Positions 3,420 through 55,794 of a stretch of DNA of 64,000 nt are shown here, piece after piece (the first letter of the stretch is position 1; each line of letters opens with the position of its first letter). Position numbers and translations under genes: made by a program. The DNA lies in the NCBI GenBank assembly GCA_964016885.1, contig OZ024741.1, forward strand, positions 181,474,001 to 181,538,000, in the 5' to 3' direction. The DNA comes from Eledone cirrhosa (lineage: Eukaryota). A model generated the notes under the pieces. That model saw only the letters and a list, made by a program, of their open reading frames with translations, was not told where the DNA came from and searched no databases.

Positions 3420-5050
3420 TATATATATATATATATCTGTGTCTATGTGTACGTTTGTGCATCAATGTAAACGTTCAGTAAATGAATGTGTGTATATATA
3501 CGCGTGTGGATATATATGAATAGTCCAGGAAATAATGTGTGCATCCTTATGTGCATATATAGCTCAGTCTGTATACATGCACGTGAGTCTGTGTCTGAGT
3601 ATGTGTATGTATGAATGGACATATATGCATATGGTGATTCAGCTAATACGTGCTTCCAATATAAAAAAAACGAGCTGGAAACTGATGAAAATGAATCGTC
3701 TGCTCAGCAACGCCAGGGATAGTAAAGAAGTGCTAATCCATACTCGGTTGATAATTAAAACCAATTTCGCATCTCCAGCAAATGTGTGGTACAAACAAAA
3801 TAACAAGGTAACGTAGTTTGTAATATAATGAAATATGTGAACATATTGATGATGTGAGCATGTAAATGATGTAACGCCATCCATGAATCATTCTTCTTAA
3901 CATGAAGTAATGACTACAATTTTGTCCTTCAATGATCTCACTCTGACGACAGCATTGCATGATCTTTACAATATAGTTTTCAATTAGTAATACGTATGTA
4001 TGAACCCGTAACAGAGTCGCAAGGGGACTGTAGTGACATATATCATGTCTTAAGGACTTTAAATGGGAGAGATAAAGAGGAAGTGAGAAAGAGATGTTGA
4101 GGGATAATCGATTGAACTGAAGCTTTCTTATCGACCACGAAATGTAAAAAGGAAAAGTTATGGCTATTGATGTTCCGAGTTGAAATTCCGCTGCGATCAA
4201 CTTTACCTTTTCAGGGTCGATAAAATAAAATACCAGTCTAATACTAGACTAGATTTAACTAACTACCCCCACCATTTACTGGCCTTGTGTCTAATGTGGA
4301 AATCATTATGAGGAAATATATGAGTGATGAAGTTGTAGAATACGTATCACAACAAAGCGTATCAACGGCGGCGTGTTATGTTACTGTCCGTTCAGCTGGA
4401 AAAAATGAGTTGTACTTGTAATGCTAAGGACAATTTTGTCACACACTGAATCTACCGGAGAACTACGTTATTAGTAAACGTATAAATAAAAGCCTCAGTC
4501 ACTTGTACGTTAATTTCATGAGCAAGCCGTTTCGTTGGTCGTAGAACCGGAAAACTCATCGTCGTAACCGACAGAGACCCGATACATCACATTCTCAGTT
4601 CAATTTCCACCTAAATATTACTTATCCTTTCGTCCTTCCGCGCATTGCACCTAAACGTCTAGTCTCGGTGTCTATATTCGAAAATCTGTTTTATTTAAAA
4701 GTATACAGACACTAGCTTTACACAGCTCTGGTTTGTTTTGTTTAGAGTTAGAAAACGTAGTCATATTAGAAACTATCTCTATAGTTTGGCTGAAGCTGAT
4801 GGCTTGGGAAAAAATTTCGTTGACAACTGTAAATATAAAGATGATCTAAAAAAAATTATTGGTATCTCGAGTTTTCCTATGTGTTTTCTTCTTTCAAATT
4901 TAGTTTCGTTTTAAGCAGATCTTGTTTATACTTTTGCGCATTACTTCAAAACAATGCGACGCCAGATAAATATCCCTGACAGAAATATTATACGAAAGGA
5001 AAAAAAAAAGCAAACGAACTGAAACTACATAATATTTTCCACCATACACC

Positions 5051-5097
<47 letters not shown>

Positions 5098-5290
5098 TAA
5101 TTTAATATATCAACTAACATAAGCGCACAGATGCACGCCTATGCCAGCAAATACACAGGTTATGTCATAGTACCTAGGTGGTTCAATGCAGGAGGATGCA
5201 GAACAATAATATAAAAGACGTAAAATAAGAAAATCTCTTAAAAAAAAAATTTTTTTTTTTTTTAATTTTTACTTACTTACTTAAATTTTC

Positions 5291-5372
5291 ACTCCAACTA
5301 ATTAGTTTCCGCAATGGGATAAAGACAGTTACGTAATCTAACTGTCGAGAATTCATTGCGTCATCAGGGAGT
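5291..5372 (-). ncRNA. Type I hammerhead ribozyme, unit 1 (fully paired)
   Basis: Minus strand: ACUCC-CUGAUGA-CGCAAUG[...GACAGUUA gauuacg UAACUGUC...]CAUUGCG-GAAA-CUAAUUAG-UU-GGAGU; stem I 5 bp, stem II 7 bp plus an inner hairpin, palindromic stem III, GUU cleavage triplet. Confidence 0.88.
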
Positions 5373-5862
5373 CTATTCTCAGCTAAGTCTCCAGGCAATG
5401 CGCGGACACTGGCGGCTCATATAAAAATAATAATAATTCGGTAGATGGAACAGCTAGCGAGGACTGAATTCCATGCACTGAAATCCTCACTGCCTCTAGT
5501 CAAATGGCCGATTCTAAAGAATCAATCACGTGACACAGAGGCTAGTCAGAAGGAATGTGATGGTAAGATGACAGACGCCTACTAACACCCCCCCCCAAAA
5601 AATTTTTTTTAGAAGTGGTTTTGGCAGGTTTGCTCGACAAATCAGTGATTTGGAGATAAATATAGATAATTTAATATATCAACTAACATAAGCGCACAGA
5701 TGCACGCCTATGCCAGCAAATACACAGGTTATGTCATAGTACCTAGGTGGTTCAATGCAGGAGGATGCAGAACAATAATATAAAAGACGTAAAATAAGAA
5801 AATATCTTTAAAAAAAAAATTTTTTTTTTTTTTTTTTTTAATTTTTACTTACTTAAATTTTC

Positions 5863-5944
5863 ACTCCAACTAATTAGTTTCTGCAATGGGATAAAGACAG
5901 TTACGTAATCTAACTGTCGAGAATTCATTGCGTCATCAGGGAGT
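5863..5944 (-). ncRNA. Type I hammerhead ribozyme, unit 2
   Basis: Same as unit 1, but the core-proximal stem II pair is C.A (CAUUGCA-GAAA). Confidence 0.8.
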
Positions 5945-6432
5945 CTATTCTCAGCTAAGTCTCCAGGCAATGCGCGGACACTGGCGGCTCATATAAAAAT
6001 AATAATAATTCGGTAGATGGAACAGCTAGCGAGGACTGAATTCCATGCACTGAAATCCTCACTGCCTCTAGTCAAATGGCCGATTCTAAAGAATCAATCA
6101 CGTGACACAGAGGCTAGTCAGAAGGAATGGGATGGTAAGATGACAGACGCCTACTAACACCCCCCCCCCAAATTTTTTTTTTAGAAGTGGTTTTGGCAGG
6201 TTTGCTCGACAAATCAGTGATTTGGAGATAAATATAGATAATTTAATATATCAACTAACATAAGCGCACAGATGCACGCCTATGCCAGCAAATACACAGG
6301 TTATGTCATAGTACCTAGGTGGTTCAATGCAGGAGGATGCAGAACAATAATATAAAAGACGTAAAATAAGAAAATATCTTAAAAAAAAATATTTTTTTTT
6401 TTTTTTTTAAATTTTTACTTACTTAAATTTTC

Positions 6433-6514
6433 ACTCCAACTAATTAGTTTCTGCAATGGGATAAAGACAGTTACGTAATCTAACTGTCGAGAATTCATTG
6501 CGTCATCAGGGAGT
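6433..6514 (-). ncRNA. Type I hammerhead ribozyme, unit 3
   Basis: Same as unit 2. Confidence 0.8.
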
Positions 6515-7000
6515 CTATTCTCAGCTAAGTCTCCAGGCAATGCGCGGACACTGGCGGCTCATATAAAAATAATAATAATTCGGTAGATGGAACAGCTAGC
6601 GAGGACTGAATTCCATGCACTGAAATCCTCACTGCCTCTAGTCAAATGGCCGATTCTAAAGAATCAATCACGTGACACAGAGGCTAGTCAGAAGGAATGG
6701 GATGGTAAGATGACAGACGCCTACTAACACCCCCAAAAAAAAATTTTTTTTAGAAGTGGTTTTGGCAGGTTTGCTCGACAAATCAGTGATTTGGAGATAA
6801 ATATAGATAATTTAATATATCAACTAACATAAGCGCACAGATGCACGCCTATGCCAGCAAATACACAGGTTATGTCATAGTACCTAGGTGGTTCAATGCA
6901 GGAGGATGCAGAACAATAATATAAAAGACGTAAAATAAGAAAATATCTTAAAAAAAAATATTTTTTTTTTTTTTTTAAATTTTTACTTACTTAAATTTTC

Positions 7001-7082
7001 ACTCCAACTAATTAGTTTCTGCAATGGGATAAAGACAGTTACGTAATCTAACTGTCGAGAATTCATTGCGTCATCAGGGAGT
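7001..7082 (-). ncRNA. Type I hammerhead ribozyme, unit 4
   Basis: Same as unit 2. Confidence 0.8.
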
Positions 7083-7492
7083 CTATTCTCAGCTAAGTCT
7101 CCAGGCAATTCGCGGACACTGGCGGCTCATATAAAAATAATAATAATTCGGTAGATGGAACAGCTAGCGAGGACTGAATTCCATGCACTGAAATCCTCAC
7201 TGCCTCTAGTCAAATGGCCGATTCTAAAGAATCAATCACGTGACATAGAGGCTAGTCAGAAGGAATGGGATGGTAAGATGACAGACGCCTACTAACACCC
7301 CCCCCCAAATTTTTTTTTTAGAAGTGGTTTTGGCAGGTTTGCTCGACAAATCAGTGATTTGGAGATAAATATAGATAATTTAATATATCAACTAACATAA
7401 GCGCACAGATGCACGCCTATGCCAGCAAATATATATATATATATACCATGATATTAAATAAATGGAAACTATATTTATAAAACCATATTTAT

Positions 7493-7555
7493 TTTTATTA
7501 TATATATTTCAAGGGCAACCAAGCCAATCTTGGTGCGCTTTCATCAGATAAAATA
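7493..7555 (-). ncRNA. Minimal type I hammerhead (left arm)
   Basis: UUUUAU-CUGAUGA-AAG[..ACCAAG auugg CUUGGU..]CUU-GAAA-UAUAUA-UA-AUAAAA. Confidence 0.72.
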
Positions 7556-7689
7556 CAAAGTTTGTTTTATAAATAAAGACGTACCCATGAAGATTCAACC
7601 TTATCTGTCGGAAATTCACTGGATAAGGTTGAATTCACTGATAAGGTTGAATCATCATGGGTACGTCTTTATTTATAAAACAAACTTTG

Positions 7690-7754
7690 TATTTTATCTG
7701 ATGAAAGCGCACCAAGGTTGGCTTGGTTTCCCTTGAAATATATATAATAAAATA
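7690..7754 (+). ncRNA. Minimal type I hammerhead (right arm)
   Basis: UAUUUUAU-CUGAUGA-AAG[..ACCAAG guugg CUUGGU..]CUU-GAAA-UAUAUA-UA-AUAAAAUA; 8-bp stem I, palindromic stem III. Confidence 0.75.
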
Positions 7755-7902
7755 AATATGGTTTTATAAATATAGTTTCCATTTATTTAATATCATGGAA
7801 TATTTACTCCAGTAATTTGTTGAGTGCTCTATATCAGTTATAAACATTTATTTTTGTCGGAATTCCAACAAATTAAATACAACTTCTACATATATATATG
7901 TA

Positions 7903-7949
<47 letters not shown>

Positions 7950-8029
7950 TGTCCCCCCAAAATATATACACACTTTGATTACCTGTACAGGCAATATAAA
8001 TTAGAATGGTACATACATTTTTTGGGGAC

Positions 8030-8034
<5 letters not shown>
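7950..8034. mobile_element. Tiny Tc1/mariner-type MITE
   Basis: TIR remnants tgtcccc..aaaa / ttttggggacaccc within (TA)n; same family as 10613 and 11762. Confidence 0.6.
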
Positions 8035-8079
<45 letters not shown>

Positions 8080-9139
8080 AATAAATATATATGGTGCACA
8101 CACAATCACTAACACAAACACCTACTTACTGTGTAACACCTCCAACTCAAATACAAACCAAATACACGCAATACGCACATAGACATACGTATAGAGAAAC
8201 TCACACGTAAACATATACAAACATACACACATAACCGAGAAACCCACCACCCCCACATACGTGTACATTCTACTACTGACACACACAAACTACACACAAA
8301 CCGACAAGCACACAAACACACAGACTATATACGCACAATTTGATGGATACACTCATACAGGCAGACACCAAAAACAAAGGGCCCAAGTCACACGATGTAT
8401 CTCACCCCCGCACACACATATCACAACCGACTGAGCTGGAAACCCTATGACCACTGCTGAACCCTTTCCCACGCATCCCTACATAAAACCTATATGTCTG
8501 CCCACCTCACCCTTCGTGATAAACCCCTCTATCATTTTTTCTTTCTTTTCCCCCTTCCAAACTTCTTTCTCTCGCCTAATTTTACTATTGTTTAATAAAT
8601 GAAAGACTAAAATTAGGGGAGAGAAACTGATAATTCTTCCTAACTTTGCACCATTTGCGGAAATGGAAAGTTAATTAATTATATTAACATCAGTACTTAT
8701 CGATCACAGAAGATTGAAAGACGGGATTTAAACTCAGAACATAAAGGGCCATAACTTAATACTGCAAAGCATTTTGTCCGACGCTCTACCGATATTGTCA
8801 ATCATCCACCCTAAGCGTGAAACTAGCCTCGCGAGCTGGAATGGCCCTTTCAGCGCGTTCCCATACCATCCTCCAGAAAATTGCCATCTCCATTCTATCC
8901 GCCGGGGCCGCAGAACGACCAGCGCATGGGCTCCCATCTGCTTATAATAGTGAGAGATGGGGAGAATGGAAGAGACGGAGGCAGTGACAGTGGGAGTTGT
9001 GTTCTTTTGTGTTCGGACCTTGTGTATGTGTATATGTTTTACGGACTTCCTTCCTTAATAGTTCATCTCACCGTGTAATTTTCCCCCGTGTTTATCGTCA
9101 ATTTTTAAACCTTGAATAGTATATATATATATGATGGCT

Positions 9140-23295: not shown

Positions 23296-26200
23296 ATGGC
23301 TGTGCTAAGAATAGGGTGTCTAAATGCGCGTGGCCTGGGCTCATCTTGGAAGCAAGCAATGCTTCTAAATGACCTCAGGTCACGATCTATAAATGTGATG
23401 GTTATCTGCGAGGCCCGGATCAGCAGCATGCGACAGCTAGCCTCCACCTTTGACGACTTTGAGATGCACGCATCTCTCTGTCAGCCCGGAGGTGGGGGTG
23501 GGGTTGTCGTTCTGCTGCAAAAACATCTGGGTCTTGCCACACAGATAGTTCACTTGGACCCAGGGGGTCGACTGGTGGTGCTGGACCTTGGCAGTGGCGA
23601 AGGTGGAGCCTTTAGGCTGGTAGCCGCATATGCCCCTTTTGGGACAGAGCGGCTCGAATATTTCCAGCGTCTGGAGTCTTTTCTAGGGACGTCCCGTTCC
23701 CTGCTTTTAGTGGGGGACTAGAATGGTATCCTGAATGCACGTTGGGACTATGCAGGGGCATGTCCCGATAGAGAGCGGTGCAACAGCCTCAAGGGGTTAC
23801 TCGGCCGATTTGACCTGACCGATAGATTTCGATTAGATTTTCCGACGCTGCCAACCTGGTCTTGGTCAAATCGCAGCGGATCATCTAGGTCGTACCTAGA
23901 TAGGTTTTTAGTTAGAAATAAGGACAGGGACTTTTTAAGTTGTCCAGTAATGCTCATGGTTGGCTATTCAGACCACAAGTTGGTGACCTGCATGGTCAAC
24001 CTTGATAGAACGCATAGACAGGGCCCCGGTTACTGGAAGCTCAACTTGTCCTTGCCGGCAAGTAGAGCTTACAGGGATCGGATTAGTACGTTAGTTAAGG
24101 AACGGTTGACTGGAGCGATCGTCAACAGCAGGTGGTGGGTATCTCTAAAGAGAGAGATTAGAGTAGTTTCGATAGAATTTAGTAAGGTTCTAGCTGCGGA
24201 TAGGAATAGCAAGGAAAGGGAGCTAATAGATAGAGTAGAAGAGACAATTAGAAGCGGCGACGTGGCCAGAGTGCTAGCGTCGAGAACGGCTTTGAGCCAG
24301 TTTTTCGACGCGAAGCACGAAGGCTGCGTTGTCCGAAGTAAAATACGTGCTCTAGGGAACGAGGGGACCAAAGCTGTTGGCTGGGCCCGCGTGACAGAGG
24401 CCAACAGTGGAACTAAATCCACCATCCGGTCTTTGCGAGACCAGGATGGACGGGCGATTCTTGAGCCTAAGCAGATGTGTGAGGCCTTTCAAAGGCACTT
24501 TGCCCGACTGTTCGTAGGGGGCGGGGAGCCGGTTGGGGATGTGGACTTCGGTCCATACCTCGACGGCCTGCCGCGTCTCTCGGACAGGGAGGCGAAGTCC
24601 TGCGAGGAGCCGATTTCGGCCGCTGAGATAGAGGACGTGCTGAGCCAATGCGGCAAACGCAAATCCCCGGGTCTCGATGGTCTTCCATACGAATTATATC
24701 TAGCTATGCCGGACTTGTTCCCCGATCTCCTCGAGGCGGTCTACTGCAACTGGCAACAGAACGGGAGAATTCCCTGTACTGTGACCAAGGGCGTATTCAC
24801 GTTTGTGAGGAAGGACGAGAACAAGGGGGACGAAATAAGTAACTTCATGCCCATAACTCTGCTAAATACAGAGTTACAGATTTTGGCCAAGGTGCTAGCA
24901 AAGAGGTTGGCGCTTGTCGTGGGCAACCTGGTGGGAGATGCGCAGACACGTGCTATCCCGTCCAGGTCCATCCATGACAACCTCCACCTCATGCGATACA
25001 TCATAGAGAGGGTTGGGAACGAACCCGGCTTTGGTGGGGCTCTGATCAACTTGGATCAATCTAAGGCACTCGATAGGGTTGACCATGGTTACCTGGATGC
25101 GGTGCTAGAGGCGGCAGGCTTCGGACCCGTTTTCAGGGGCTGGATCACTGCTATGCACAGCAGCCGCATCTGCTCTAGGGTCAAGGTGAACGGCTACCTC
25201 TCGGAGCCGTTCAAAATTGCTCGGTCCATCCGACAAGGGTGCCCTCTCTCCTCCCTTCTCTATGTGTTGACTCTCGAGCCACTACTGCGGAAGTTGGAGT
25301 TGTTGCAGGGCATCCCTTTGGAACTGGGATTGCGGAAAGCGGTGTCGGCCTACGCCGATGACGTGACCGTAATGGTGTCGACGGCCTCCGAAATCGGGAC
25401 GGTCGGCACCTTACTGGAGGAGTACGAAAGGTTCACAGGGGCTAAGCTGAACCGGGACAAGTCGATCGGTTTGCAACTCTGCACGTGGAGGAGCAGACCG
25501 ATGCCCTCCGATGGCGTCGTCGGACGCTGGACGGAGGGGCCGGTGAAGTTGCTCGGGGTCTGGTTCGGACCAGACCTCCAGGTGGAGAAGAACTGGGCGG
25601 AGGTTACGAACAGGGTGTTTGCACTGACCCAGAAGTGGGCCAGTTGCAAACTATCCCTGAAAGGTCGGGCGGAGGTGGTGAACACCTATATAGCGTCCGT
25701 CATCTACTACCGCCTGACCGTAGTGCCTTGTCCAAGAGAAACCCTCGCCAAGATGGAGCGCGCGCTCTTCCAATTCCTTTGGAAGAGGCGGGCTCCCTTA
25801 GTGAGGAGATCCATCTGCTGTCAACACCCTTCGAAAGGAGGGCTGGGGATGCCGTGGCTAATGATGCGTAAACACGCATTAAGGCTATGGCACCTCCACG
25901 TATTCCTCACCGGTCAACCGGTGTGGGCCTCGTTTGTGAGACGAACCTTTCCCAGACTCGTCTCACTCACCGAGCTGCAATCCTGGGTCAAGCAAAGACC
26001 GAGAAATCTGGGCGCCTGGCACACTGAGTGTGCCCAGGCGCTCACCACCCTCTGGCAGGCGGATCCGGTTATCAGTGGAGACTCCACCGCAACATTCTAT
26101 AGAGGGCTGGTACGCAGCAGGTGCGACGACGCCATTGGAGAAGCCCTAGGCATGGAGGAAGACGAACTGGCCAACCTGTTCGGTAGGACATTCAGCCCGG

Positions 26201-26731
26201 GACCCATGGATAACTTCCAGAGGTCCCTGGCCTGGCAGTGCTACCGAGGGGCTCTACCCGTTCGAGAAAGGCTCTACAGACACGGGCGCCCGGGTAGGGA
26301 CCCGCCAAAAAGATCTGTCCCAGATGCGTGTGCAACGAGGAAACCGTTGCACACGCATTGGTACACTGCTCGGGCGTAGCCGATCTGTGGGGCTATGTCG
26401 AACAACTGCTGTCAAGGGTGGGACCGATCCGGTTGACCACCGAGTCTATTGTAATGATCAAGCCGCCTCCCCCTTCAAAGATGAAGGAGAGGCGGTGTTT
26501 CTGTGCGTAATAGCCATGGTGAAAGAAGTTGTATGGTGGACGCGTCTAAAAGGACTGAGGTCAGGCACCTTTCTCTCTGGCCAACAACTGGTCCGTTTCT
26601 TCCGATATCATTTCGGAAGAAGGATCAGGATGGAGAGAGAGGTGCTCCACCCCAGTCGTTTTTATGAAAGGTGGGTGAAAGTGGCGAGAATGGCTCGTGT
26701 GAATGGGCCTTCTATTTACATAAGCCTGTAG
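23296..26731 (+). pseudogene. ORF2 APE + RT; premature stop at ~23719, frameshifts near the 3' end; 809-aa open segment
   Basis: NARGL, SDHK, RQGCPLS, AYADD, GGLG motifs. Confidence 0.92.
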
Positions 26732-27162: not shown

Positions 27163-29823
27163 GTGTAGAAGAGGCAATTAGAAGCGGTGACGTGGCCAGA
27201 GTGCTAGCGTCGAGAACGGCCCTGGGCCAGTTCTTCGACGCGAAACACGAAGGCTGCATCGTCCCAAGCAAAATACGTGCTCTGGACCAAAGCTGTTAGC
27301 TCGGCCCGCGTGATGCGAGGCTTTTCAAAAGCACTTTGCCGGATTGTTCGGAAGGGGCGGGGGGCCGGTTGGGGACGTGGACTTCGGTCCATACCTCGAC
27401 GGCCTGCCGCGTCTCTCGGACAGGGAGGCGAAGTCCTGCGAGGAGCCGATTTCAGCCGCTGAGATAGAGGACGTGCTGAGTCAATGCGGCAAACGCAAAT
27501 CCCCGGGTCTCGATGGTCTTCCATACGAACTATATCTAGCTATGCCGGACTTGTTCCCCGATCTCTTCGAGGCGGTCTACTACAACTGGCAACAGAACGG
27601 GAGAATTCCCTGTGCTGTGACCAATGGCGTAGTCACGCTAGTGAGGAAGGACTAGAACAAGGGGACGATATAAATAATTTCAGGCCCATAACTCTGCTAA
27701 ATACAGAGTTACAGATTTTGGCCAAGGTGCTAGCAAAGAGGTTGGCGCTTGTCGTGGGCAACCTGGTGGGAGATGCGCAGACATGTGCTATCCCGTCCAG
27801 GTCCATCCACGATAACCTTCACCTCATGCGATACATCATAGAGAGGGTTGGGAACGAACCCGGCTTTGGTGGGGCCCTGATCAACTTGGATCAATCTAAG
27901 GCATTCGATAGGGTCGACCATGGTTACCTGGATGCGGTGCTAGCGGCGGCAGGCTTCGGACCCGTTTTCAGGGGCTGGATCAATGCCATGCACAGCAGCC
28001 GCATCTGCTCTAGGGTCAAGGTGAACGGCTACCTCTCGGAGCCGTTCGAAATCGCGCGGTCCATCCGACAGGGGTGCCCTCTCTCCTCCCTTCTGTATGT
28101 AATGACTCTAGAGCCACTGCTGCGGAAGTTGGAGTTGTTGCAGGGCATCCCGTTGGAACCGGGATTGCGGAAAGCGGTGTCAGCCTACGCCGATGACGTA
28201 ACAGTAATGGTGTCGACGGCCTCGGAAATCGGGGCGATCGGCACCTTACTGGAGGAGTACGAAAGGTTTACAGGGGCTAAGCTGAACCGGGACAAGTCGA
28301 TCGGTCTGCAACTCGGCACATGGAGGGGCAGATCGATGGTGTCGTCGGGCGCTGGACGGAGGACCCGGTGAAGTTGCTCGGGGTCTGGTTCGGACCATAC
28401 CTCCAGGTGGAGAAGAACTGGGGTGATGTGACGAACAGGGTGTTTGCACTGACCCAGAAGTGGGCCGAGTGCAAACTGTCCCTGAAAGGTCGGGCGGAGG
28501 TGGCGAACACTTATATAGCGTCCGTCATCTACTACCGCCTGACCGTTGGCGCCTTGCCCAAGGGCAACGCTCGCCAAAATGGAGCGCGCACTCTTCCAAT
28601 TCCTTTGGAAGAAGCGGGCTCCTATGGTGAGGAGATCCATCTGCTGTCAACACCTTTCGAAAGGAGGGCTGGGGATGCCGTGGCTAATGATACGTAAACA
28701 CGCATTAAGGCTACGGCACCTTCAGGTATTCCTCTCCGGTCAACCGGTGTGGGCCCCGTTTGTGAGACGAGCCTTTCCCAGACTCGTCTCACTCACCGAG
28801 CTGCAATCCTGGGTCAAGCAAAGACCGAGAAAACTGGGCGCCTGGCACACCGAGTGTGCCCAGGCACTCACGGCTCTCTTGCAGGTGGACCCGGCTGTCA
28901 GTGGAGAATCCACCTCGTCATTCTATAGAGGGCTGGTGGTTAGCAGGTGCGACGACGCCCTCGGAGATGCCCTAGGCATGGAGGAAGACGAACTGGCCAA
29001 CCTGTTCGGTAGGACATTCAGCCCGGGATCCATGGATAACTTCCACAGGTCCCTGGCCTGGCAATGCTACAGAAGGGCTCTGCCCGTTCGAGAAAGGCTC
29101 TACAGACACGGGTGCCCGGGTAGGGACCCATCGAAAAAGATCTGTCCCAGATGCGTGTGCGACGAGGAAACCGTTGCACACGCACTGGTACACTGCTCGG
29201 GCATTGCCGATCTGTGGGGCTATGTCGAACAACTGCTGTCAAGGGTGGGACCGATCCGGTTGACAACCGAGTCTATTGTAACGATCAAGCCGCCTCCCCT
29301 CTTCAAAAACGATGGAGAGGCGGTGTTTCTGTGCGTAATAGCCATGGCGAAAGAGGTTGTATGGTGGACGCGTCTGAAAGGACTGAGGTCAGACACCTTT
29401 CTCTCTGGCCAACAACTGGTCCGTTTCTTCCGATATCATTTCGGAATAAGGATCAGGATGGAGAGAGAGGTGCTGCACCCCAGCCGTTTCTATGAAACAT
29501 GGGTGAAAGTGGCGAGAATGGCCCGTGTGAATGGGTCTTCACTCTACATCAGACTATAGGTGAGGAAGATGAAAGACCAAGGGAGCACCCCTTCTCTGTG
29601 CTCCTGAGGAGAAGGGTTGCACACTTTTTTCGGGGGTGTGTGCGACCCCCCAAGGCGCCTCCTCACTATTGAGGACTTTGTTATAAATTTTATTTTTTGT
29701 TATATTTTATTTTATTTTTATATTTTGTTATTGCCTCCTCCTTATTGAGGACGCCTTGTTTTGTAAACTCCCCCCATTGTACTTGTCCCACTTTTGATGC
29801 CCTGGTGGCAAATAAAAGAAACA
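27163..29823 (+). mobile_element. Tx1/L1-clade retrotransposon, copy 3 (5'-truncated, same subfamily as copy 2)
   Basis: Starts mid-ORF2 directly after (TATC)n; RT motifs; 3' UTR nearly identical to copy 2; followed by TATC(TC)n. Confidence 0.92.
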
Positions 29824-29885
<62 letters not shown>

Positions 29886-32800
29886 ACGTTTAAAAAAAAT
29901 GGCTGAAGCAACAACTTCTTCACCAACATTCGAAGGAGGAAAGGGGAAGATATGCTTACAGCTTCCCGCTTCCAATGTCATAGTAGCAGATGTCTCAGAC
30001 AAATGTCAGACAGAGAAAGGAATTTGTTCACCTGCTGACCAACAACTTGACGTTGCCATGGCAACAAACCAAAACCAAAATTGTGAAACAATGAACAAAA
30101 ACAACACAACCGGCACCACCAGCAACAACAACAACGAAGACAACAACAATAACAAGAACAAAAACAACTCCAGCACAAACCAAAACAACCTAACACACCA
30201 AAAGAAAAAAAAAACTTTTGCAGAAAGCCTTACCAAAGAGACAGAGTTTATAGAGATAGATCGTTCAAACCAAGGGCAGCACCTAAAGGACGCTGCACAA
30301 CATATAACTTTCGAAGGAAACGGCTTTCGAATAAGTACCCCACCGGAAATTAGGGCTGCGAACTTAACAAAAACAATTTTATTCCTGACGATCTGCTCAC
30401 AAACCGAGAAACCGATGGCTTTAAGCAATAGCACGGTGGAAACCGCGCTAAAGGAGGCAATGCCAGACATTGCTTATCTCCAGAGGGCCAAGCAGTGCGG
30501 GAGCATCTCGGTGCTCTTTAAAAGCGAGGCCCTCGCCCAGAAATATTCAGTGGCTCCATTTAGAACGAGCCAACACATCTTCTTCCCAACATACATGGGA
30601 AGAAGAACCCATAAAATAAGGGTCTCCAGATCCCACCGAACACCAACACTTGTTGGATCCTGGGTGGCTTTTTGGAGGAGGGTGAAGACAACCTCCTCTC
30701 TGTAGAAAAATCAATCCGACAGAACTGGAGCGGGACCTCAGTTGAGCTTTTAGTTCAAATGAAACCGGAGAGGATTGACAAAATACCGGAAAGGGTGCCT
30801 GTGGATGATAACCATGTTGTCCACATGGCAGTGGAGGGCAAAAGACCACAATGTTTCAAATGTGGAAAAAAGACACATTTAAAAGCATTTTGCCCAATGC
30901 TGGATGTGGAAAAACAAGAGAAGGCGTTGTTGCCAACCCCAAAACTACAACAGACACACCCGAAAACAAAAAATACAACCCCAAAACCATCAACATTCAC
31001 CCAACTATCACAAACCACAAAAGACACCACACCAAACATTCTCCTGAAGGACTCTGTCCCACCCCTTCCCCCTCAGTCCAACACTCCCACAAACACACAC
31101 ACAAACACTCCACCACCACACAAGATACCCCTCCTACCTACCCACAATGATAACACCTCAGGCACGGGAACCTCAACATCTCCAAGTGAGGATGAAGATG
31201 AACCCAAAAAATCCAAGAAGCAAAAAATACAAAAAAAAAAAATACAACAAAAAACATCAACTGAAAACACGCTCACATCCAACATTGACATAAACATACC
31301 GCCACAAACGACAACCAAACCAACAACACAACCAGACACTTCACCAACAAAACAAACACCCACACCACCACAATCACAAACCGCAACCACAAAAAGAAAA
31401 CTACAAACAGAAACAGTACACATAAAAAACAAAACACATTACACATACATAAAAACAAGAAACAAAGAACTGGTGGAAACTGTCCGAAAGGACCCCACGA
31501 TACAAACGGAAGGGAAAATCTTCCCCACCAACGACCCACCTCCAAACCTCAAACTTATCAGGGTAACAACCCTACAGTACGAAACTTTAAAAGAGAACTT
31601 CTCACATGATGTGGGCCCCCCTTGCCCAAAACCCCTTAACCGTGTCCTGCTAAAAGGATTCCCTCCTTCCCCAAGCACCACCAATCTGGACTTGGAGATC
31701 GAACAACCCGACCTGCAGGAAACGAAAAGGTAAGTGTTCCTGCCTTTTCTCTCCCTAACTCTTCTTCACCAACATGGCGACTATACAAGCTGGATGTTTG
31801 AATGTACGTGGCCTGGGCATGTCCTGAAAACAGGGCCAGCTTTTAAATGATCTCAGGTCACATTGTATAGATGTGATAGCCATCACTAAGTCCAGGATTC
31901 ACGACAAGCAGCAGCTAACCCCCATATTCGATGATTTTGAGATCTACGCATCTCTCTGTCAGCCAGGAGGTGGAGGGGGAGTTGCTGTTCTGTTTCGAAA
32001 AAACTTGGATCTCAAAATACAGACGATTCACTTGGACCCGGTGGGCAGCTTGGTGGTCCTGGACGTGAATGGTAGTGAAGGTGGAGCTTTCAGACTGGTG
32101 GCCGTATATGTCCCGATTGGGACATCGCGACCAGAGTTCTTCAAGCGTCTGGAGCCATTCTTGGGAACGTCTCGCTCCTTAGTGTTAGCGGAGGACTGGA
32201 ATGGCATCTTAGACGCACGTTGGGACTATGTAGGAGCTTGTGATAATAGAGGGAGGGGTAATAGCCTCAAAAATCTCATCAGCCAATTCCAACTGGCTGA
32301 TAGATATCGACTAGACTTCCCAAGTGCACCAGTGTGGACGTGGAACAACCGCACTGGGTCTTCTAGATCGTAGTTAGATAGATTTTTAATTAGACAGAAT
32401 GATAAGGAAACATTAAACTCTACGCCGCTGCGGGAAACGCAAGTCACCCGGTTTAGATGGTCTATCCTATACGTTTCACATAGGCATGCCAGACTTGTTC
32501 TCTGGCGTCCTCGAAGCGGTCTACTGCAACTGGCAGCAGAACGGGAGGATTCCCAGTACTGTAGGCAGAGGCGTAGTAACGCTGATCAGGAAAGATGAGA
32601 ACAAGGGGGATGAGATAAGCAATTTCAGGCCCATAACTCTGCTCAACACAGTGTTAGCAGCGAGGCTGGCGCTTGTCGTCGAAAACCTGGTAGGGGAAAC
32701 GCAAACGCGTGCAATCCCGACCAGGTCCATACACAACAACCTCCACCTGATGCCATGCATCATAGAGAGGGTAGGGTGTAAACCTGGCTTCGGTGGGGCT

Positions 32801-33534
32801 CTGATCAATTTAGATCAGTCTAAGGAATTTGATAGGGTCGACCATCATACTTGGCAGCGGTTCTACAAGGCGTCCGGCTTCGGTCCAGTCTTCAGAGGCT
32901 GGATCTCTGCCATGCACACCAGCATCTGCTCGGCAGTCAAGGTGAATGGTTACCTATCGGATCCATTCCAAATCATGCGTTCCATCCGTCAGGGATGCCC
33001 CCTCTCCTCCATTCTGTATGTACTGACTCTCGAGCCGTTACTGCGGAAATTGGAGCTGTTGCAGGGCATCCCGATCGAACAAGGACTGCGGAAAGCGGCG
33101 TCAGCCTATGCCTACGACATAACCGTAATGGTGTCGAAAACCTCGGAAATCGGGGTAATCGGCAACCTATTACAGGAATACGAAACGTTGACAGGAGCAA
33201 GACTAAACCCAAACAAGTCTGTCGGTTTGCAACTCGGCACATGGAGAGGCAAACCCATGCCTTCCGACAGTGTCGTTGGACGCTGGACGGAAGGACCAGT
33301 GAAATTGCTCGGGGTCTGGTTTGGGTCTCGGGATCTGGTGTTGAGTGTTGTTCTATCCAAGGGGTGTAAAACAACTCTGCAGTAACGTTCACCCATATTG
33401 GGAATTTGTTATTTTATTATATATAGTTTATTGTTATTTATTAATGTTAAAGTTATATGATTTTTATGTAAAGCCCCGCCGTCACGTCTTGTAATGTCCC
33501 ACTTTTGTACGCCCCTGTGGCTAAGAAAGAAAGA
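29886..33534 (+). mobile_element. Tx1/L1-clade retrotransposon, copy 4 (5' UTR truncated, two internal ORF2 deletions)
   Basis: ORF1 29899-31733 (CFKCGKKTHLKAFC); ORF2 from 31774 with deletions at ~32420 and ~33325; 3' end tgtggctaagaaagaaaga + tatctatgtatctatc. Confidence 0.9.
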
Positions 33535-54960: not shown

Positions 54961-55794
54961 TCTATCTATCTATTCTATCTACCTATCCCATTTCCCTCTC
55001 TTATATATACTATTTTGGTGCGCTAATATGGAAAGGTGGATGCAGCATGCCCGAAGGGTTAAAAAATTGGTTTCACAATCAAAAAGGTCCGACTTCGGAT
55101 ATCTTGGACAAATATTGATTTAGGTCCGAATAGTTAGCAGTAAGGAAATTCTTATTGTAAGATGCAACGACCTCACCTTGAACTATGAACATTATACTCT
55201 TTCTGATGAAATGCAATATTTTACGTAATGCTTGCGATTGAGCATAGGACTATGCAGTTAGCGCTCATAGACTGATATTGTATTGAAACATACGTTAAAG
55301 AACGAACTCTAAATAAATATTTCTCCTCTAACCTTTACTTCTTGCCCAATCATTTATTTTTCCTGGTACTATACCTTTACTATTATAAATACTCCGTGAT
55401 CTTCTCTTTGGATACTGTACCTTAAACTCTCTAATTCGACTGTTACTGTACCTCCTGCAATGACCACATTAAGAAAAATACTTTGGTAAGCAATCTTCCA
55501 TATTTATTCTTCCTTGCACATTTGATTCACACTAACAAAATTTAACCTGTCATATCTTCTCTTAACTATTTTTTCTTTCCTTTCCCTCATGGCCTTTTGA
55601 TCGATAAAATGCCTTGGGCGCGCGGCTGATTGATTTCGATGTCCTGTGTTAAGTGCCGAAACATCTATGATCGCAGTTAACAGCTGATGAAGGGTTTCTT
55701 CTCTTGTTTACGTTCATATTATTATCTTACACTTTGTTTACAGTAACCACAGAGCCCGCGACGTTTCTTGTAATTTTATATATATATATATATA

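Follow-up and report, generated by a model that had tools for sequence, protein, structure and literature searches.

A Tandem Hammerhead Retrozyme Family in Eledone cirrhosa with Penelope-like Insertion Anatomy

The 64,000-nucleotide stretch of Eledone cirrhosa DNA analysed here (the window; contig OZ024741.1, positions 181,474,001 to 181,538,000, forward strand) contains a tandem array that was very probably inserted by Penelope-like machinery acting on a non-coding parasite, a non-LTR retrozyme. Fixed termini, a (TA)n target, asymmetric use of two sites, a template common to partner arms, and covarying ribozyme stems were found in the family.

Structure of the Array

The array lies at 5096–7431, with the minus strand as RNA sense, and consists of four full units and a 58-bp stub. 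Unit starts were 5096, 5665, 6237, 6806, and 7374, with lengths of 569, 572, 569, and 568 bp before the stub. This agreed with the sequence-only reading made earlier on the same DNA, which had described about 4.1 units of ~570 bp within (TA)n. The units had also been called non-coding, and no open reading frame of at least 150 aa overlapped 5096–7431. The left part of the (TA)n target is at 5052–5095, probably the primer side, and the right part is at 7432–7445. Position 5096 is the RNA-3′ end of the array, at the fixed long terminus A; position 7431 is a variable RNA-5′ truncation. A 113-bp tail (5096–5208, minus strand) runs from terminus A at unit position 1 to the short terminus B at unit position 114, which falls at 5209 in unit 1 and 5778 in unit 2. 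The array is an A-primed, unpaired arm of 4.1 units without an inverted partner. A ~60-bp partial repeat at its end had been taken as a sign of rolling-circle reverse transcription. The repeat is there (58 bp), but it is the RNA-5′ truncation end of the A-primed arm and is no proof of rolling-circle copying.

Window units were 97–98% identical to unit 2 by BLAST and differed by 0–0.9% outside homopolymer tracts. The A-run/T-run and C/A/T tracts (5233–5270 and 5589–5612, in every unit) varied in length between otherwise identical units and were absent from diverged subfamilies. The proposed young age suited the window array and not the wider family, in which relatives are 70–87% identical. The monomer had also been thought unusually long; ~570 bp falls inside the range of 51–972 bp given in bioRxiv 2026.07.22.740005. 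The retrozyme circles described in PMC7229834, of 170–400 nt, are shorter than this unit.

Elsewhere in the window, a further type I hammerhead at 55198–55301 (plus strand), with a stem II of at least 11 bp and stem III CAUACG, belongs to another element. RVT_1 reverse-transcriptase frames were found on the plus strand at 23722–26379, 27463–28371, and 32417–33385, in GC-richer blocks with (CAA)n; these are probably LINE copies.

Distribution in the Genome

The genome searched comprised 3.0 Gb in 1,796 contigs. A 22-mer pattern from the ribozyme gave 4,446 matches, and its reversed control gave 0. The first 100 of these matches in position order represented 57 loci, so roughly 2,500 loci would be expected by extrapolation; a first-look search returned 2,702 candidates. 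Arms ranged from <0.1 to ~11 units on many contigs, as expected from the earlier proposal of dispersed arrays with variable unit number. The two strands were unevenly represented among the 22-mer matches (1,903 forward and 2,543 reverse), which may reflect at least one very long array outside the 57-locus sample.

A pattern leaving out the window subfamily gave 8,344 further matches, and the identity of their monomers fell as low as 70%. There were also two sister families (483 and 457 bp), which differed in their hammerheads and had a common tail motif (2,236 matches; control, 2). The 483-bp unit has stem III CCGAUCGG and the two-terminus architecture (locus L034, 331–900; L077; L144–L173); nine tandem matches and one inverted match of this family were seen at C1:82116822–82120242. 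The other family has a 457–459-bp unit, stem III CCGUCGG, and a tail of ~112 nt (L170, 1090–2065; L275, 5699–6360). Diverged subfamilies and both sister families keep their termini about 110–115 nt apart.

Insertion Anatomy

The 96 arms of the 57 sampled loci were compared. The RNA-3′ end was at A (44 arms) or B (51 arms, including 4 placed by their flank where BLAST had dropped a homopolymer tract) in 95/96 arms, with an A–B spacing of 113 bp. A truncated partner in head-to-head inverted orientation was present at 34/57 loci. Of 35 inverted pairs, 34 were A+B and thus carried the one-sided 113-bp tail, one was A+other, and none was A+A or B+B. The probability of such an A+B excess under independent site choice was about 2e-11. 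All 91 directly aligned A or B termini abutted a TA or GA run, which extends the (TA)n flanks noted earlier in the window to the sampled family. The (TA)n runs themselves act as landing pads, since the flanks of L001–L112 contained the ends of more than 20 different elements with hammerheads.

Partner arms differed by 1.5% from each other and by 7.2% from other loci in the 22/35 pairs with enough overlap, although the partner was strictly the closest match in only 9/22. The comparison showed that partner arms were, as judged from their sequences, copied from one shared template. Neither arm was contained in its partner in 7/35 pairs, and inner ends were equal in only 3/35. A simple fold-back origin of the inverted arm was rejected on these two counts; therefore, both arms were primed on RNA. 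The RNA-5′ ends were scattered over the unit, and 19/26 unpaired arms ended at a microsatellite. A long hairpin precedes terminus A in the tail (approximately 5675–5724 in unit 2, minus strand). In the tail alignment, 3/33 predicted pairs changed on both sides, all of them within this hairpin.

Probable Mobilisation by Penelope-like Machinery

In PMC8557442 and PMC3846280, Penelope-like insertions are recognised by an inverted 5′-truncated copy together with a one-sided tail, which is their hallmark, and in the in vitro system of PMC11167929 the tail ends were two internal reverse-transcription start sites and both strands were extended. The retrozyme copies have both the hallmark of PMC8557442 and the two-start pattern of PMC11167929 and can therefore be regarded as scars of Penelope-like machinery. 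The link to Penelope-like mobilisation, until then a suggestion for this array, was strengthened by the A+B termini and the common template of the partner arms. Its identification as a tandem type I hammerhead non-LTR retrozyme also gained support, since the family is dispersed, high in copy number, and covarying in its stems.

The following route is proposed. The minus-strand RNA carries one hammerhead per unit, which would probably cut out ~570-nt monomers; cutting likely needs two units pairing through the palindromic stem III. A Penelope-like protein with reverse-transcriptase and GIY-YIG domains would act in trans and cut (TA)n. Reverse transcription would be primed inside the RNA at A and B, fixed sites separated by 113 nt, and the two target ends would use different sites on one template. 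Head-to-head joining of two truncated cDNAs would give an inverted insertion, and direct joining of one cDNA to (TA)n would give a plain array such as the window copy. The unit contained no reading frame for such a protein, and none was attached upstream in loci L114–L173.

Ordinary satellite DNA spread by recombination, or a LINE-mobilised SINE, with a hammerhead-like motif arising by chance was also considered. Some long arrays occur, and the window has LINE-type reverse-transcriptase frames, as such an origin would predict. The two fixed internal termini, their strict A+B pairing, and the overlapping inverted arms do not fit it, nor do the lack of a poly(A) end and the covarying ribozyme stems. 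This origin was largely refuted by the termini pairing and stem covariation and is considered very improbable. A polymerase III B-box in plus-strand GGTTCAATGC was rejected: subfamilies break the box yet keep the hairpin pairing.

Hammerhead Ribozyme

The minus strand of all four full units contains stem I (ACUCC/GGAGU), CUGAUGA, GAAA, the palindromic stem III CUAAUUAG, and UU, so that the complete core, stem I, and palindromic stem III claimed for every unit were recovered in 4/4. The type I hammerheads lie at 5291–5372, 5863–5944, 6433–6514, and 7001–7082 in units 1 to 4, with predicted cuts after 5296, 5868, 6438, and 7006, respectively; the first is the site between 5296 and 5295 already proposed for unit 1. 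Cleavage would give a 570-nt monomer at 5868–6437, as well as monomers of 572 nt (5296–5867) and 568 nt (6438–7005). The core CUGANGA, GAAA, and UH and three stems were present in the array, and the 5′ core was intact in 83/90 sampled copies.

The stem II originally described, CGCAAUG/CAUUGCG, was correct for unit 1 only; units 2–4 read CAUUGCA. The G beside the core of unit 1, which forms a C-G pair, was private to that unit and occurred in 0/77 other arms covering the position. All of the first 100 matches listed had A there, with a pattern open to either base. Therefore, the family form, present in unit 2, has C·A beside the core and, beyond it, a 6-bp stem whose first pair is G-C. The flanking G-C was found in 45/49 distinct hammerheads and C·A between it and the core in 48/49, the 3′ C and the A being partly fixed by the search. 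Unrelated long-stem-II hammerheads at L045, L067, and L103 also had C·A beside the core, and this variant may be common in the Eledone cirrhosa genome.

Stem pairs were compared among the 49 distinct hammerheads. Stem II pair 2 was C-G in 29, G-C in 9, U-A in 8, and A-U in 3; stem II pair 5 was U-A in 37, G-C in 11, and unpaired in 1; and stem I pair 4 was C-G in 37, U-A in 9, U-G in 1, and unpaired in 2. In these counts, the search patterns partly dictated the 3′ bases near GAAA and left their 5′ partners free, and the hammerheads are kin, so that the counts represent a handful of independent changes. As read from the alignment, the compensatory changes show selection on the ribozyme fold.

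The folding of the hammerhead region was more stable than that of shuffled sequences (z −2.8 to −3.4), and z was −5.75 for the monomer. The predicted lowest-energy monomer fold pairs the CUGAU core with a stem III strand, which would be an inactive form. This fold and the palindromic stem III agree with the dimer mode that PMC4209133 describes for hammerheads of animals. The Penelope-like minimal and extended type I hammerheads of that paper also have an extra nucleotide between A9 and the G-C pair. Long helix II, short helix I, and a palindromic helix III that suits dimers are common to those hammerheads and the array. Unlike them, the array has a second extra nucleotide, an A preceding GAAA; its helix II region spans 50 nt and encloses an inner hairpin, and its cleavage triplet is GUU. 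An Rfam search, the check proposed for the hammerhead, was carried out on 4000–9000 and returned no hammerhead match up to E 1. Its only hits were microsatellite-driven miRNA noise, and canonical-looking neighbour hammerheads were missed as well; the long stem II insert is the probable reason.

Template of Reverse Transcription

Within the Penelope-like route, the template may be a self-cleaved, ligated circle of ~570 nt copied by rolling-circle reverse transcription, to which we give an even chance. The cut site was crossed by 76/95 arms, and only 6/96 ended within 10 nt of it, so run-off at the cut site was not enriched. Units within an array differed by 1.4% (42 pairs) against a median of 6.7% between loci, and arrays of about 7–11 units occur. 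PMC7229834 demonstrated circular retrozyme RNAs in coral, mussel, and axolotl. Against this, multimeric RNA left uncut would give the same junctions, and insertion by a Penelope-like protein in vitro proceeded with uncut RNA, hammerhead cleavage being dispensable (PMC11167929). The rolling-circle argument from the arms crossing the cut site loses force through the latter result, and both these arms and the stub fit a circle or an uncut multimer alike.

The template would then be linear read-through RNA of multi-unit arrays, with a ribozyme that is slow, protein-dependent, or meant for another step. This is possible, with a probability well short of even. The in vitro result, obtained with the anole Poseidon element, speaks for it, as do the self-blocked monomer fold and the non-canonical C·A beside the core. 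In bioRxiv 2026.07.22.740005, 8/9 Xenopus retrozyme dimers were without cleavage in vitro and 1/9 cleaved. The compensatory stem changes argue against an uncut template, in that they point to selection on the ribozyme fold. Only 5/96 arms reached two units; therefore, few copies could be parents of a multi-unit RNA.

Bulged Hairpin near the Start Sites

A bulged hairpin was found just 3′ of each terminus on the minus strand. The hairpin after B, GUUC-UGCA...UGCA-UU-GAAC, is at 5750–5773 and again at 5181–5204, 6322–6345, and 6891–6914. The hairpin after A, CUC-CAAAUC...GAUUUG-UC-GAG, is at 6205–6228 and at 5633–5656, 6774–6797, and 7342–7365. A descriptor written post hoc, after the tails of all inverted stumps had been compared, matched 16/35 tail clusters no farther than 22 nt from the short terminus, where shuffled sequences would give 0.8; it also matched 216/5,000 real background windows. 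Six of the 16 clusters were retrozymes, 5 of them from the window family, and 10 were other elements. Among 12 distinct families, the outer pair, which the descriptor did not require, was split evenly between G-C (6) and A-U (6). In the hairpin after A it was unpaired; the pair next to it was U-A in the hairpin after B and C-G elsewhere.

The tail clusters were provisionally labelled by clade (Neptune/Poseidon-type or Hydra), partly from linker motifs. The bulged hairpin stood at the short end in 3/4 Hydra-linked clusters, two of the three links resting on one locus each, and in 0/7 Neptune/Poseidon-linked clusters; the fourth Hydra-linked cluster had, by eye, a version with a 1-nt bulge. The hairpin after A folded weakly (z −1.6), and the Hydra motif of the window (7806–7825) preferred another fold (z −0.3). 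The bulged hairpin 3′ of each start site may be a positioning signal, at just under an even chance.

Candidate Driver Element

A separate neighbour in the same (TA)n, at 7446–7890, is a stump of a Hydra-clade Penelope-like element. It has inverted arms (a 353-bp inverted repeat, 7446–7798), one hammerhead per arm (7493–7553, minus; 7690–7754, plus), and a one-sided tail of ~92 bp (7799–7890) that includes the bulged motif at 7806–7825. The stump family had 1,531 first-look candidates in the genome. The stump end was 91–92% identical to a copy continuous with an ORF bearing DKT, YxDD, and CxCX5C, which are Hydra-clade marks in PMC8557442; the clade targets (TA)n in the same source. Hydra elements are plentiful in the genome, with 51,866 first-look candidates in a search with a Hydra-type protein. 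The most likely driver of the retrozyme is a Hydra-clade Penelope-like element, with a slightly better than even chance.

The (TA)n target is common to the retrozyme (91/91 termini), the Hydra clade, and Naiads, and Naiads have been reported in cephalopods (PMC8557442). A driver outside the Hydra clade, such as a Naiad, Neptune, Nematis, or Poseidon element, is hence a lesser possibility, though a serious one. Neptune-type copies with long open frames (775–1096 aa) exist in the genome, and among the Hydra families compared none had a matching tail sequence of ~113 nt; the tail of the stump family is 92 nt, against 110–115 nt in the retrozyme families. The distribution of the bulged hairpin (0/7 Neptune/Poseidon-linked against 3/4 Hydra-linked clusters) argues for Hydra over the Neptune/Poseidon-type elements sampled. 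Some Neptune-type copies (L271–L275; frames of 775–938 aa) have a hammerhead-like motif starting with UUGAAGA, not CUGA, ~1.0 kb after the ORF.

The retrozyme tail profile was compared with Penelope-like copies by nhmmer in 283 loci and the window, including a small Hydra sample, and the best E value was 0.73. GIY-YIG, Neptune-type, and Hydra-type protein searches and 20 long-ORF loci gave no terminal repeat like the retrozyme tail, and the Penelope fragments compared with Pfam matched none of its families. With a short-spacer tail pattern, nearly all of the 100 matches listed, of 156, were variants of the family. Apparent driver links at L165 and L142 were rejected as separate insertions in the same (TA)n.

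A wider proposal, held tentatively and with less confidence than an even chance, joins the hairpin to the Hydra clade. A hairpin of YUC, an upper stem, a two-base U-led bulge, and GAR, 5–12 nt 3′ of the start, would be the positioning signal of the Hydra-clade reverse transcriptase. Three retrozyme families would use it to hijack the enzyme, and an enzyme dimer would always place the two target ends at different sites of a single RNA, which might be circular.

Comparison with Known Systems

Animal non-LTR retrozymes have been described by Cervera and de la Pena (2020; PMC7229834) and by Li et al. (bioRxiv 10.64898/2026.07.22.740005). Like those, the present family is low in GC and consists of tandem units that are non-coding and each contain a single type I hammerhead. 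Its thousands of dispersed copies occur alongside Penelope-like elements, and its unit length is within 51–972 bp. The link to Penelope was argued in these papers from co-occurrence, common hammerheads, and terminal-repeat homology. Fixed twin termini, inverted arms, and a (TA)n target, all found here, do not appear in their available descriptions. Circles and cleavage were demonstrated for some species in those papers; in the present family, cleavage is predicted and circles are possible. The four invertebrates of the preprint, as described, include no mollusc. In the open-access literature, no description of the window retrozyme family, or of twin termini in retrozymes, was found.

The family resembles endonuclease-bearing Penelope-like elements, above all those of the Hydra clade (Craig et al. 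2021, PMC8557442; Arkhipova et al. 2013, PMC3846280), in that copies are truncated at the 5′ end and have an adjacent inverted copy, a one-sided tail, a hammerhead lying upstream of the termini, and a (TA)n target. It differs from them in having many tandem units and no ORF. Its tail is 113 bp, against the 30–40 bp described for Penelope-like elements and about 80–92 in the local Hydra families.

In vitro, the anole Poseidon element (Frangieh et al. 2024, PMC11167929) likewise has two internal reverse-transcription starts bounding the tail, extension of both strands, and an AT-rich target. Top and bottom strands did not differ in start site there, whereas the genomic pairs here nearly always combine A with B. 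The Poseidon start is in an AC-rich stem-loop; the starts here are in UAUA-like sequence 5′ of the bulged hairpin.

Conclusions

The element is an ordinary genomic parasite and an added member of the known retrozyme class; its insertion anatomy is the new part. The mobilising enzyme of animal retrozymes has so far been argued from co-occurrence and homology (PMC7229834; bioRxiv 2026.07.22.740005). Here, the insertion scars carry the Penelope signature in a countable form (34/35 pairs). From them follow predictions of two exact start sites and a target, together with candidates for the enzyme clade and the RNA signal, all of which can be tested in the assay of PMC11167929. The strict A+B rule constrains how Penelope-like enzymes complete insertion. 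If the reading of the hairpin and the Hydra clade is true, the mobiliser of animal retrozymes would be named, and the hairpin would provide a portable RNA tag for (TA)n-targeted insertion.
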